NCBI GenBank assembly: GCA_043826455.1
Contig: JBDRQD010000058.1
Location: 1 to 29,391, forward strand
Source: Candidatus Bathyarchaeota archaeon
GTDB lineage: Archaea > Thermoproteota > Bathyarchaeia > TCS64
Direction: 5' to 3'
Length of the DNA stretch: 29,391 nucleotides
Every line of letters begins with the position of its first letter. Positions within the stretch are counted from its first letter, which is position 1. Shown here piece after piece: positions 21,001 through 24,000 of this stretch. Position numbers: made by a program.

Positions 21001-24000
21001 GCCAGCTGGAGCTGCACGTCACGGGTGGTCTGGTTCACCTTGGTTAGGTTGACGTACAGGTGGCTACCGACGCCCGAGGGCTCGTAGAGGGCCACCTCCT
21101 CGACCACGAAGTCCTCCGGGCGCGCCCTGATGCGGCCCCCTACGCCCTCCAGCCCCGCGGTGATGTATGGGAGCGACAGGTCGAGGGGAGGCGGCTTCAC
21201 CATTCTGTGATGTATCCCGCCTAGGTTATTGAAGGATTCGAAAAAGGTGGATGATGTGTCCGCTACATCTTCCGGGGTCTCTTGGGGACGGCCAAGTCCG
21301 CTGCCCCCATCTCTGAGAGCCGTGCCTCGGGCCAGTTCTCCTCCACGATCCCTATGAGCCGTTCAGCGTACACCACCTTGTCCCGGGCCAGCTTCTCCAG
21401 TCCCGCCCCCCAAGGCTTGTAGAGGGCGCCGACGCCGGGCCCCGGCTCTATCTTGAAGTAGCAGGGAGAGCAGACCCGCGCCATCTCCGGGGTCTCGTAT
21501 ATCCTGTTGAAGCCGCCCCAGGCGTCGAAGAGCCAGACGTGGAGGTCCATGGGTATCTTGACCGCCTGCCTTATGGCTGCCAACTGTGGCAGGGTGAGGT
21601 CGCCCACGGGGTTGAAGGTGTCGGCCCCCAGCGTCTCCAGCACCTTGGCGCCCGCCGGGTTAGCGTGGCCCGCGAAGATGCTGAGCTTGAACACCACGTC
21701 TCTGGGTATCATGCCCCGCTTCCTGAGCTCGTTTACAGCGTAGAGACCGCCCTCGCCTACGACGAGGAACCCCTTGAAGCCCAGTTCGATGCAGTGGCGT
21801 ATATCGTCAACCACCTCGATGAGACCCTTCATGCCCCTGTACCTGATGCCGCATAGGCCCCCCTCCGGTGTGGCCACTTGGCGCCCCGTGTCCCACAGCG
21901 CCCTGGGGCCAGGGGTGAGGATGACCTCCAGGTCGGCGTCGTGGGCCACCTGGGCGAACTCCTCAAGCTCGCTGTCGCTGAGAAGCGTTGACCCCATCAC
22001 GGTGCTTATGAGCCTGTGGACGGGCACGTCCCGCCTGTCCATCTCGTCCACCAGGGCCCTGAGCACGGAGAGGTTCTCCACGCCAGATATCTCGATGCGG
22101 TAATTAGCCCCGTCGGGGAAGGTTGTGCTTGAGGAGGGGAGGCCGTAGGCGTCGCCCTCGGGTAGTCCTATCTCGGCCAGCATCTTGGCCGTCTCTTTAA
22201 GCATAGTACTCCGAGGAAATGTTTAGTCTCTGACTATTTTAAATATTCCAATTAGAATCAGGTAAGGCGCCTCTTAGAGCCTCAGACGTCGATGAATAAA
22301 GGAAAAGGTTGAGGGAGGGGTCACTGGCTCTCCCGGAAGGGGTGCCTGGAGCTCCGCGCGTTCTCAGCGGCCTCCCGGGCCGTGGGCCTGCCCTCCATGG
22401 CCTTCCGGATGGCGTGCCTCATGGCCTTCAGGTTGTTGATGTACACCCGTCTGCGACGCGAGGCTGAGGGGTGGACGAAGACGTTGGCTATCATCACCAG
22501 CTCATCCGTCTCGGGCAGTATGCCGTCCGCCACGGACATGGCCACGGCCTTGGCCACGGCCTCCTGGGCCGGCCCGTAGACGAAGCTGGCGTCCCTCATA
22601 CCCCTGACGGGCACCGTGGGCACTATGATGGTGGGCGGCTTCACGGCCATGTTGGGCTCCAGTATCACCTGCAGGGCCTCCCGGTCCTTGCTGGGCCTGG
22701 CTAGCGCCTCCGCGTAGGCCTTGCCCACGGGGCCGTCCACCTGGCCTATCAGCAGGTCTATGTGGGCCACCTCGTTGCTGTCGGGGTCCACTAGGGCCTC
22801 ACCTGTCCGCAGCTTGAACTGGTCTATGACAGCGGGGGTGACGTCCACCCTGTAGAACTGTTCCTTGACGGGGCCGGATGGCAGCTTGAACTCCACAGGC
22901 TTCTTGGGTATGAGGCCCAGGTTCTCCAACTCGACCCGGAACTCCTCCCTGAGCTCCCAGGTCACCGTGTCCCCAAGTACTATTGGGCGCCTGGTGGGGC
23001 CCACGTCGTGGCCCATGAAGTTGAGGCACACCTTGGGGCCCTGGGCGCCCGTGGCCACGATGTGGCGGGTGAACTTCTGGAGCCTCCACTGGACTTTTCG
23101 GGCCTCATCCAGCTTCCCTGCCTTGAACTTCTTGTAGAGGTCAAGCCAGTAGGGGGCGACCACGTTGGCTGATGCAAGGATCATGCCCTTGCAGCCCACT
23201 GCCAGGGCTGCCAGGACCACCTCGTCCCAGCCCACCACCACGTCGATCTTATCGCCCACCTTCTCCAGCACCGACATGAGGTACTTGAGGTCGCCGCTGC
23301 TGTCCTTCATGGCGCGGACCGTGCTGCACTCGTCTACTAAGTCTTCGACTACCTGCCATGGGATGTACTGGTTGGTGGCCACCGGTATGTTGTACAGGAC
23401 GAGGGGTATGTCCACGGCGCCGGCTATGCTCACATAGTGGTCGTAGATGCCCTTACCGCCCTTGGGCTTCATGTAGTAGGGGTTGACTATGATGGCGGCG
23501 TCCGCTCCCACGTCCAGGGCGTGCCTGGTGGCGTCTATGACCAGCTTGGTGGCCGTGTCCCCGGTGCCGGCTATGACCGGCACCCTGCCGTTCACCTGGT
23601 CCACGCACACCTCTATGACTCGGGCCCTCTCAGCTTGGGTCATGAGGCTAAACTCGCCCGTGGTGCCGCAGGGCACTATGCCCGTGATACCCTGCTCTAT
23701 GAGCCAGTCCACGAGGTCCCGGAACACGGGCTCGTTGAACTCCTCATGTTTGTCGAAGGGCGTGACCACTGCGGGCAGCACGCCCTCTAGTTTAAAACTT
23801 GACATCTCTGAGAGTTGTTAGGTTCAGCCTTTCTATAACAGTTTCCACGGGGCCAGCCGCTACTTGTCGGCTTTCTTGGCCGCCTCCAGCCTCTCCCTAA
23901 CCTCGTTCATGAACTCGGGGAAGTCGTACTCCTCGGCGTCGAAGGGTCCCTCCCACCACTCCACGGTGAGTATGTCCGTCTCCGGCAGCAGTATGTGGGG

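Follow-up and report, generated by a model that had tools for sequence, protein, structure and literature searches.

A conserved aldolase-Fae fusion of Bathyarchaeia as a candidate H4MPT-linked pyruvate hydroxymethyltransferase

The stretch of DNA analysed here (the window, 29,391 nucleotides of contig JBDRQD010000058.1 from a Bathyarchaeota genome) encodes on its minus strand, at 22321..23805, a protein of 494 aa which, judged from its sequence, consists of an intact class I pyruvate-type aldolase domain of DapA descent flexibly linked to an intact formaldehyde-activating enzyme (Fae). We give an even chance to the reading that this protein interconverts pyruvate plus methylene-H4MPT, via formaldehyde, with 4-hydroxy-2-oxobutanoate (HOB) and thereby feeds the homoserine node; HOB aldolase is a functional class without a sequence family, and the assignment rests here on context. 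Somewhat more tentatively, we suggest that an H4MPT-dependent pyruvate hydroxymethyltransferase occurs naturally in Bathyarchaeia and Asgard archaea, as well as in certain bacteria, and that this enzyme, together with a TIM-barrel enzyme, builds homoserine from pyruvate and Wood-Ljungdahl C1 units and replaces Ask, Asd and Hom in many lineages.

The fusion had been described in an earlier note on this DNA, and its architecture was recovered by ORF translation from the ATG start and by Pfam and NCBIfam searches (DHDPS E 1.5e-68, Fae E 1.5e-46 in Pfam). The DHDPS/NAL-family class I aldolase domain comprises residues 6-276 (22978..23790, minus strand; Pfam, 2vc6 alignment and MAFFT) and belongs to PF00701 with 231 bits at a cut-off of 22.1. 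It is followed by the C-terminal helices of the aldolase fold and a linker (residues 277-333; 22807..22977, minus strand; AF2 model) and by the Fae domain (residues 334-490; 22336..22806, minus strand; Pfam, NCBIfam and alignment with 1y5y). The AF2 model (mean pLDDT 83.7, pTM 0.76) shows two confident domains joined by a disordered linker. As residues 305-330 are predicted to be disordered, with pLDDT below 50 at 305-320 and 326-330, the model gives no support to a rigid passage leading from one active site to the other.

The Fae domain is full length; it covers profile positions 1-158 of 159 and has both the EVAHIDLLIG motif and, at its C-terminal end, the RHPFR sequence. It scores 158.7 bits against PF08714 (cut-off 27) and 166.7 bits against TIGR03126 one_C_fae (cut-off 118), and it aligns end to end with residues 5-166 of the Methylorubrum Fae 1y5y (E 1e-27). 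The genome (2.95 Mb, 97.66% complete), searched in full, gave a single Fae match, at the fusion gene, and the same genome encodes the H4MPT enzymes Mtd (328 bits), Mch (365 bits) and Mer (402 bits), both as the earlier note had stated. Hps (TIGR03128) gave no match in this 97.66% complete genome, and a role of Fae in a reverse ribulose-monophosphate pathway was rejected on this ground. Against the Fae-Hps profile NF009833 the fusion reaches 129.2 bits, below the cut-off of 274, and covers only profile positions 3-160 of 392.

The closest relatives of the aldolase domain in sequence are DapA / DHDPS proteins (TIGR00674; 2vc6, 1dhp), with which it has the fold, the Schiff-base lysine, the tyrosine and the GTTGE motif in common. 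It keeps GTTGE (47-51), the PYY pair (109-111, with the conserved Tyr110 and Tyr111), Tyr138 and the family's Schiff-base Lys167 (codon 23305..23307, minus strand, within MKDSSG). This lysine is invariant among the five DHDPS-family genes of the genome and present in 126 of the 128 fusions that were aligned by MAFFT together with 125 unfused relatives, so that the claim of retained catalytic motifs stands. The fusion differs from DapA in several positions, one of which is Ala143 (codon 23377..23379, minus strand; 2vc6 alignment and MAFFT) in the column of an arginine two residues past YN.P, which in DapA presumably binds the carboxylate of aspartate semialdehyde. In the best solved relative, 2vc6 (E 8.2e-49), the residues ynipGRs stand opposite YNIPVAT of the fusion. 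Arginine occupies this column in none of the 128 fusions (A 78, C 23, T 16, V 7, L 3, Y 1) as against 49 of the 125 unfused relatives, and the following column is Thr in 125 of the 128 fusions; the loss of the arginine reported earlier is thus borne out. Further features of the fusion compared with DapA / DHDPS are the G-W-D-E segment at 192-195 (with E195), Leu210, Trp220, Gln243, an extra Gly following RxP and, of course, the added Fae domain.

With 202.0 bits the fusion falls just below the dapA cut-off of TIGR00674 (206.15, NCBIfam), and a separate paralogue on contig C30, which reads YNNPERCG, is the sole gene of the genome to exceed it (249.8 bits), as expected from the earlier note's claim of an ordinary DapA elsewhere. 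Taken together, the two scores argue on sequence grounds that the fusion protein is not the organism's DapA. That it should nevertheless be a true 4-hydroxy-tetrahydrodipicolinate synthase merely bearing a Fae domain appears very improbable to us, although its nearest solved relatives are all DapA, its score is just 4 bits short, and aspartate semialdehyde is a substrate common to homoserine dehydrogenase and DapA. The fusion of genome G031 even exceeds the cut-off (254.7 bits), which makes the dapA score alone a weak test. However, the arginine is consistently absent, the genome has another gene above the cut-off, and most carriers of the fusion lack Asd, the maker of DapA's substrate.

The link to homoserine comes from a comparison of 301 Bathyarchaeia genomes, 94 with and 207 without the fusion, in which the contingency counts overstate independence because the genomes are related and no phylogenetic correction was applied. 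Asd is present in 30/94 carriers versus 159/207 non-carriers. The fusion is found in 52 of the 81 genomes with matches to neither Asd nor Hom and in 15 of the 146 that have both, and among genomes with ThrB it occurs in 17/33 without Asd versus 15/122 with Asd. This complementarity recurs in separate lineages, namely genus g2 (both fusion and Asd in 1 genome, fusion only in 6, Asd only in 9, neither in 2) and, with counts in the same order, families f11 (4/9/33/2) and f29 (0/4/7/1). Families f3 and f27 have carriers without Asd, and in f9 and f13 Asd is present but the fusion is absent; within the genus of the window's own genome fusion and Asd are unrelated (8/10/9/5).

Gene neighbourhoods point in the same direction. 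The fusion has homoserine dehydrogenase as an immediate neighbour at loci L025, L027 and L032 and in genomes G135, G163, G219 and G265 (L032 is within G135, and L025 apparently within G219), and both G219 and G265 have Hom without Asd. In G031, which is 96% complete and has no match to Asd or Hom, the fusion forms a cluster on one strand with a homoserine kinase (298 bits) and a threonine synthase (376 bits), the genes being arranged in this order. A thrC-family match is retained in 42 of the 52 carriers without Asd and Hom. Other observations speak against the homoserine reading: ThrC matches are weaker in many carriers (E 1e-58 to 1e-86) than in genomes with Asd (~1e-110), the GHMP-type ThrB is found in 32/94 carriers versus 123/207 non-carriers, ten genomes have ThrB without Asd, Hom or a detected fusion, and all six carriers of f27 are without matches to Asd, Hom, ThrB and ThrC. 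No transaminase was found to be linked to the fusion. The window's genome itself encodes Ask, Asd, Hom, ThrB and ThrC; the fusion is therefore not needed here as the sole route to homoserine, and that role was rejected for this genome.

The earlier note had proposed a pyruvate-type aldolase that makes or uses formaldehyde. Three elements of this proposal hold up, since the protein is not the genome's DapA, its pyruvate and Schiff-base machinery is kept and its Fae domain is intact. The HOB reaction itself we still infer, now with independent comparative support from the adjacent homoserine dehydrogenases, the cluster with thrB and thrC, and the negative association with Asd and Hom. In the proposed mechanism the Fae domain would interconvert methylene-H4MPT and formaldehyde, and a pyruvate enamine on Lys167 of the aldolase domain would add to the Fae-derived formaldehyde to yield HOB (net: pyruvate + methylene-H4MPT + H2O <-> HOB + H4MPT). 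Members of the DHDPS family from E. coli may also have HOB aldolase side activity, and homoserine is the transamination product of HOB. A putative transaminase would accordingly convert HOB to homoserine, which could enter threonine synthesis by ThrB/ThrC or be turned into aspartate semialdehyde by homoserine dehydrogenase acting in reverse. Lineages that have neither Asd nor Hom would use this route in place of homoserine synthesis from aspartate; in the present genome it may constitute a second entry from the Wood-Ljungdahl pathway that needs no ATP and runs alongside the aspartate route, or may run in the reverse direction.

The same enzyme could also serve catabolism, splitting HOB derived from homoserine or another source into pyruvate and formaldehyde, with Fae trapping the latter as methylene-H4MPT for oxidation or acetyl-CoA synthesis. 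In Fae-Hps, Fae is thought to trap formaldehyde freed by an aldolase-type reaction, and this analogy speaks for a catabolic direction, as do the biosynthetic homoserine route already present in this genome, the patchy, accessory-like distribution of the fusion (16 of the 31 sampled genomes of the genus) and the PFOR genes, which in L066 immediately precede the fusion on its own strand and in L024 occur in its vicinity. We nevertheless regard it as unlikely; there is no obvious supply of HOB or free homoserine, the enrichment of the fusion in genomes without Asd and Hom and its cluster with thrB and thrC would be left without reason, and the occurrence of Hom without Asd beside the fusion in G219 and G265 fits synthesis better. 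A comparably small chance is given to a different 2-oxo acid as substrate, such as 2-oxobutanoate, or 2-oxoisovalerate yielding ketopantoate, in a pterin-linked hydroxymethyl transfer or formaldehyde release whose compound is made or used by the neighbouring TIM barrel. Such a role would agree with signature residues that make the acceptor pocket unlike that of every characterised family member, with a partner barrel to which no function is assigned and with the varied gene types adjoining the fusion at different loci (SHMT, CdhA, Ldh_2, AFOR, TrpB2-like). It is at odds, however, with the retained pyruvate-binding motifs and with the fact that homoserine genes are the sole recurrent pathway links, and the genome has an ordinary PanB (362 bits), for which reason the role of a missing ketopantoate hydroxymethyltransferase was rejected.

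Improbable, in our judgement, is a chain that simply carries two unrelated activities, an ordinary pyruvate aldolase, for sugar acids or other substrates, and a general formaldehyde-detoxifying Fae. Its attraction lies in the closest relatives, where genes for a racemase resembling LarA and for a sugar-acid dehydratase of the UxaA type, the latter split, are located divergently upstream of the fusion, and dehydratases of this type yield 2-keto-3-deoxy acids, the usual substrates of the aldolase family. This neighbourhood is confined to 7 of 28 related loci, all with fusions 84-99% identical to the window's protein, and thus reflects shared ancestry and is uninformative; a tetronate route, in which these two enzymes would lead to HOB, was rejected for the same reason. 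Moreover, the fusion family comprises 13 clusters at 50% identity, with both domains in all of them and aldolase domains down to ~35% identity, and so appears to be old and diverse; retention of the fusion over such a range argues for a coupled function.

The synthetic reading, i.e. formation of HOB for homoserine, gains a possible second component in the gene downstream. The earlier note had called the neighbours unnamed, which needs to be amended. At 21263..22204, 116 bp downstream of the fusion and on the same (minus) strand, lies a conserved gene for a protein of 313 aa. Of the 35 sampled genomes holding both genes, 14 have them side by side. Copies 58-63% identical to this protein adjoin fusions that are merely 42-50% identical to that of the window. 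All of its 1677 homologues are named 'hypothetical', and no Pfam or NCBIfam family, PF01136 included, matched it at E<=1. Its AF2 model (pLDDT 82.4) is that of a (beta/alpha)8 barrel, for which Foldseek gave YdjI and tagatose-/fructose-bisphosphate aldolases as best matches (E 1e-9 to 1e-7) with a TM of just 0.45-0.54, and VIA-align gave a flat ranking of many unrelated barrels (Z 15.1 to 12.4), including the U32 structure 5d88 (Z 13.6, 17% identity). PF01136 (Peptidase_U32) is found on 17-23% of the members of look-alike clusters in the Atlas, and a profile search against solved structures reached only E 0.5 at best. The protein is therefore predicted to be a TIM barrel without a specific family; three histidines, H63, H180 and H222, are invariant and are candidates for metal-binding residues like those of class II metal-dependent aldolases (FBA_II fold). 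It probably catalyses a step neighbouring that of the fusion.

Other lineages have a partner of ~430 aa (L014:11482-12786), which a single query did not find in the window's genome and which resembles the 313-aa protein weakly (BLAST E 3.8e-4 over 141 residues; hhalign probability 8.5%, E 0.004). Complex prediction for the fusion and the 313-aa protein, run without controls, gave an ipSAE of 0.00 in both runs (mark 0.32). Three studies yielded metatranscriptome contigs of relatives, 90-97% alike, that cover both genes in part; they are short, come from RNA libraries that can hold DNA, and none spans the gap at 22205-22320, so that neither transcription nor co-transcription can be deduced from them.

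Among known systems the fusion is most readily compared with Fae-Hps of methanogens (NF009833; 5,6,7,8-tetrahydromethanopterin hydro-lyase / 3-hexulose-6-phosphate synthase), in which Fae is likewise fused to an enzyme of formaldehyde C-C bond chemistry in H4MPT-using archaea. Both probably share the rationale that formaldehyde should not reach the cytoplasm in free form, as far as the analogy carries. However, the partner domain there is an Hps of the OMP-decarboxylase fold and not a DHDPS-family class I pyruvate aldolase, and the order differs, the aldolase being first and Fae second in the fusion. The net reaction proposed for the fusion, in which a methylene-pterin donates a hydroxymethyl unit to the C3 position of a 2-oxo acid, also resembles that of PanB. 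PanB, a metal-dependent enzyme made of one barrel that uses methylene-tetrahydrofolate and 2-oxoisovalerate, has no sequence relationship to the fusion. The aldol reaction of pyruvate with formaldehyde is chemically established; according to the review PMC8879981 it serves as a promiscuous activity in the designed homoserine cycle, and HOB is termed a non-native metabolite there. The chemistry (pyruvate + formaldehyde -> HOB -> homoserine -> threonine) is like that proposed here, with the difference that the promiscuous E. coli RhmA used in that cycle is an unrelated enzyme acting on free formaldehyde in an engineered host, whereas the fusion is a natural, conserved gene with a class I aldolase that would be coupled to H4MPT via Fae.

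So far the proposed reaction has been described in engineered bacteria only. Literature searches on HOB, aldolase and DHDPS and on the homoserine cycle returned engineering papers and reviews only, with nothing on YagE and formaldehyde in this cycle, and, in agreement with the earlier note, no paper on a DHDPS/DapA-Fae fusion. If the proposal is true, some archaea that rank among the most abundant in sediments already carry out a reaction deemed non-natural in synthetic methylotrophy, and the designed homoserine cycle has an equivalent in nature. The Wood-Ljungdahl pathway would then lead straight into C4 amino acids with neither carboxylation nor ATP, so that C1 fixation and amino-acid synthesis would be connected in a way not recognised before, and threonine, methionine and aspartate semialdehyde would also derive from homoserine made by way of the fusion. 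The fusion and its TIM-barrel partner could furthermore serve as parts for engineered formaldehyde assimilation.

The fusion also calls for a correction of annotations. A repeated protein search gave 4650 matches among 8000 scored candidates, and the best 120 of these all carry PF00701 and PF08714, are 57-100% identical, bear names from Bathyarchaeia and Asgard lineages and are mostly labelled 'DapA', as had been noted before. The gene is otherwise counted as a free 'fae' in reconstructions of Bathyarchaeia; in the parts of PMC10321748 and PMC11631310 available to us, fae is read as formaldehyde detoxification or use and the fusion is unmentioned. Conclusions on the lysine pathway and on formaldehyde metabolism drawn from this gene consequently need to be revisited. 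Tandem pairs of the fusion are present elsewhere, and some bacterial-looking loci, of Chloroflexota type, encode it as well.

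The gene at 22321-23805 (minus strand) is a real, intact and widely conserved gene which is mis-annotated as DapA. Our analysis confirmed the two-domain protein described in an earlier note on this DNA: the open reading frame, taken from the ORF list and its translation, encodes 494 residues with two Pfam domains, a DHDPS-family aldolase (residues 6-276, E 1.5e-68) and a formaldehyde-activating enzyme (Fae; residues 334-490, E 1.5e-46). The Fae part reaches 166.7 bits with its NCBIfam model, above the curated cut-off of 118, and the protein scores 202.0 bits against the dapA equivalog, slightly below the cut-off of 206.15. 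The Fae domain aligns end to end with Methylorubrum Fae (1y5y), including the AHIDL motif. The AF2 model (pLDDT 83.7, pTM 0.76) has two confidently predicted domains, and the linker between them falls below pLDDT 50 at residues 305-330.

The closest solved structures are all true DapA enzymes (2vc6, E 8.2e-49), and in the structure-search alignment YNIPVAT of the fusion lies opposite ynipGRs of 2vc6. The arginine of DapA is presumably the residue that binds aspartate semialdehyde. An alignment of residues 1-320 from 128 fusions (115 close sequences and 13 cluster representatives) and from 125 unfused relatives upheld throughout the loss of this arginine that had been claimed before: in its column none of the fusions has R (A 78, C 23, T 16, V 7, L 3, Y 1), versus 49 of the 125 unfused proteins. 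The fusion P0131 carries an Arg one column earlier. The Schiff-base lysine is present in 126 of 128; in the divergent cluster representatives P0132 and P0191 it is replaced by Ala or Leu, and P0191 additionally lacks the catalytic Tyr and Pro of YN.P; these two are possibly non-catalytic members of tandem pairs. Fusions are further separated from unfused relatives by residues including E195 (128/128), L210, W220, Q243 and R247, and by a glycine insertion that follows the RxP motif.

The best 120 of 4650 matches all have both domains, and the named ones come from Bathyarchaeia and Asgard lineages and are mostly labelled DapA, in agreement with the earlier note. When the aldolase domain alone was searched against 50%-identity cluster representatives, the top matches were of fusion length, with aldolase identity down to about 35%, and Pfam confirmed both domains in 13 of 23 scanned proteins. 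As this architecture is shared by 13 divergent proteins, the fusion is old and diversified and no recent accident.

Among 16 metagenomic loci with full-length relatives (40-59% identical), nine contain a second aldolase-Fae gene adjoining the first (L066, L070, L073, L074, L076, L079, L080, L082, L084), and in eight of these pairs the Fae profile match of one copy stops near position 138 of 159. Tandem pairs are also found in sampled Bathyarchaeia genomes (G015, G051, G057), and the L084 locus is bacterial-looking, with a family A DNA polymerase and an IclR regulator. In the window's own genome the fusion is single-copy and its Fae domain full-length. At L066:2228-5186 a four-subunit 2-oxoacid:ferredoxin oxidoreductase (gamma, delta, alpha, beta) lies directly upstream of the tandem pair on the same strand, and a BKACE enzyme and an acyl-CoA synthetase follow downstream. 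At two loci, L032 (G135:C8:518713-520189) and L027, in-frame stops interrupt the fusion or the gene is split over two ORFs; one of these loci is in an Asd-bearing genome. Either a redundant gene is decaying or the long-read assemblies contain frameshift errors.

The own assembly comprises 81 contigs and 2.95 Mb (97.66% complete, 7.21% contamination). A whole-assembly search for Fae matched the fusion alone, as previously stated, and five DHDPS-family genes were found. A single one of them, on contig C30, exceeds the dapA cut-off (249.8 bits); with its motif YNNPERCG it is the separate ordinary DapA that had been reported. Three further paralogues lack the DapA arginine (C62:28141-28998, C64:15987-16841 and C30:29181-30032); one, probably a KDG-type aldolase, has a homologue of KDG/KDGal kinase beside it, and another adjoins an Ldh_2 family dehydrogenase. 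Of the H4MPT C1 genes noted earlier, Mtd, Mch and Mer were recovered, and methylene-H4MPT is therefore a live metabolite. Hexulose-phosphate synthase (Hps) gave no match in this genome, and hence the Fae domain has no reverse ribulose-monophosphate pathway to serve, unlike that of Fae-Hps organisms. The fusion is analogous to Fae-Hps, with a class I pyruvate aldolase beside Fae. Aspartate kinase and Asd are adjacent, with ThrB immediately upstream of both, and Hom, ThrC-family genes and PanB are likewise encoded, so that this genome does not depend on the fusion for these steps.

In the window the fusion is accompanied by a conserved partner gene of 313 aa (21263-22204, minus strand), 116 bp downstream on the same strand, for which no Pfam or NCBIfam family was matched, even at E<=1. 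It has 1677 homologues, the best 120 of which are 62-93% identical, all called 'hypothetical' and, where the source is named, from Bathyarchaeia, Chloroflexota and Anaerolineae. In L065 and L073, copies 58-63% identical directly adjoin fusions that are merely 42-50% identical to that of the window. The partner profile matches 54 of 301 sampled Bathyarchaeia genomes; both genes co-occur in 35 versus about 17 expected if independent, and lie within 1.2 kb in 14 of these 35, with five families and both orientations represented; in one further genome the distance is 5.9 kb. The AF2 model is a predicted (beta/alpha)8 barrel (pLDDT 82.4), for which Foldseek placed class II aldolases on top with TM of merely 0.45-0.54, an independent all-against-representatives structural alignment gave unrelated barrels with little spread in score (Z 15.1 to 12.4), and the ESM Atlas pointed weakly to U32-like clusters. 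The partner weakly resembles a ~430-aa partner adjoining fusions in other lineages, a form that a search with a single query sequence did not find in the own genome. A complex prediction for fusion and barrel protein gave an ipSAE of 0.00 in both runs (mark 0.32), which speaks neither for nor against an interaction. Metatranscriptome contigs of relatives from three studies partly cover fusion and partner, which is no proof of transcription or co-transcription.

At loci that have the barrel gene away from the fusion, genes found near it include those for a TrpB2-like PLP enzyme, for SHMT with CdhA after it, and for homoserine dehydrogenase together with aldehyde:ferredoxin oxidoreductase. In the genus of L137 (G027:C13) and L138 (G045:C27), six of seven genomes have the barrel gene and one the fusion; at these two loci SHMT and the CODH/ACS alpha subunit CdhA (1218 bits) precede the barrel gene on one strand, and a homoserine dehydrogenase lies a few kb away.

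Genomic context links the fusion to homoserine. Homoserine dehydrogenase lies immediately upstream on the same strand in L025, L027 and L032, and adjoins the fusion in G135, G163, G219 and G265 of the 301-genome sample (L032 lies within G135, L025 apparently within G219). G031 (96% complete) has no Asd or Hom match, and homoserine kinase (298 bits) and threonine synthase (376 bits) follow its fusion on the same strand; its motif YNIPQLTG likewise lacks the Arg. Carriers number 94: 95 matches at E<=1e-60, minus G026 and G235 (unfused length), plus G144, whose fusion is cut by a contig end. Among the 301 sampled genomes, which are related and not independent, the fusion is present in 52 of 81 without Asd and Hom matches and in 15 of 146 with both, in 17 of 33 with ThrB and no Asd and in 15 of 122 with ThrB and Asd. 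Asd occurs in 30/94 carriers versus 159/207 non-carriers (ignoring kinship), by hand count in about 16 of 45-47 versus about 89 of 104 among genomes with completeness of 90% or more and contamination of 5% or less, and in 10/54 carriers of the barrel gene versus 179/247 non-carriers, a still stronger skew. The complementarity recurs in separate lineages, with counts (both/fusion only/Asd only/neither) of 1/6/9/2 in genus g2, 4/9/33/2 in family f11 and 0/4/7/1 in f29; f3 and f27 have the fusion without Asd, f9 and f13 the reverse. A thrC-family match is retained in 42 of the 52 carriers without Asd and Hom.

These data would fit a Fae domain that interconverts methylene-H4MPT and formaldehyde, and an aldolase domain whose Lys167 pyruvate enamine would add formaldehyde to give 4-hydroxy-2-oxobutanoate, which transamination may convert to homoserine. 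In passages of a formaldehyde-metabolism review (PMC8879981), this same aldol step is attributed to promiscuous E. coli RhmA in the designed homoserine cycle, and 4-hydroxy-2-oxobutanoate is termed a non-native metabolite. The parts, class I pyruvate aldolase and Fae, are known; the physiological reaction at the homoserine node is probably new. Literature searches combining Fae and DHDPS/DapA domain names returned nothing relevant, and passages of Bathyarchaeia papers mention widespread 'fae' with the fusion unremarked (PMC10321748, PMC11631310).

We give this chemistry in a mainly biosynthetic role roughly an even chance. Several counts run against a simple anabolic reading: in the window's own genus fusion and Asd are unrelated (8/10/9/5), the own genome carries both fusion and aspartate route, no aminotransferase is linked to the fusion, and ThrC matches are weaker in many carriers than in Asd-bearing genomes. 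GHMP-type ThrB occurs in only 32/94 carriers versus 123/207 non-carriers; the six f27 carriers have no Asd, Hom, ThrB or ThrC matches, and in ten genomes of the sample with ThrB and neither Asd nor Hom no fusion was detected. Another kinase may exist, since family f9 likewise lacks ThrB and yet possesses Asd, Hom and ThrC; the pattern across its 14 genomes (Asd 14, Hom 13, ThrC 13, GHMP-type homoserine kinase 0) suggests that some Bathyarchaeia use a non-orthologous homoserine kinase. The same reaction run catabolically, at odds with the complementarity to Asd, is unlikely, and so, to the same degree, is a different 2-oxo acid as substrate, which the homoserine neighbourhoods speak against. 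Two uncoupled activities on one chain seem rather less probable in view of the old, conserved architecture. That the fusion is a true DapA, as its labels and nearest structures have it, is very improbable given the arginine column and the separate C30 enzyme.

Upstream of the fusion, at 24395-27132 (plus strand), lies first a LarA-like gene for a homologue of nickel-pincer 2-hydroxyacid racemases, whose best NCBIfam match (malate racemase LarAH6, 206 bits) is far below cut-off, and then a sugar-acid dehydratase of UxaA/GarD type, split into a SAF domain gene (25646-25960) and a GD_AH gene (25957-27132). Of 28 related loci, only 7 have these genes with the fusion, and the fusion proteins of those 7 are 84-99% identical to that of the window; being confined to close relatives, the genes say nothing beyond shared ancestry. 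A 137-aa ORF (24319-24732, minus strand) overlapping the start of the LarA-like gene on the opposite strand is probably not a gene, its apparent conservation tracking that of LarA. Two tandem AstE/AspA (succinylglutamate desuccinylase/aspartoacylase) family genes lie at 16103-18212 (minus strand) with an SDR and a DUF362 gene nearby, and the DUF362-SDR-AstE block recurs behind the fusion in L022 and L029.
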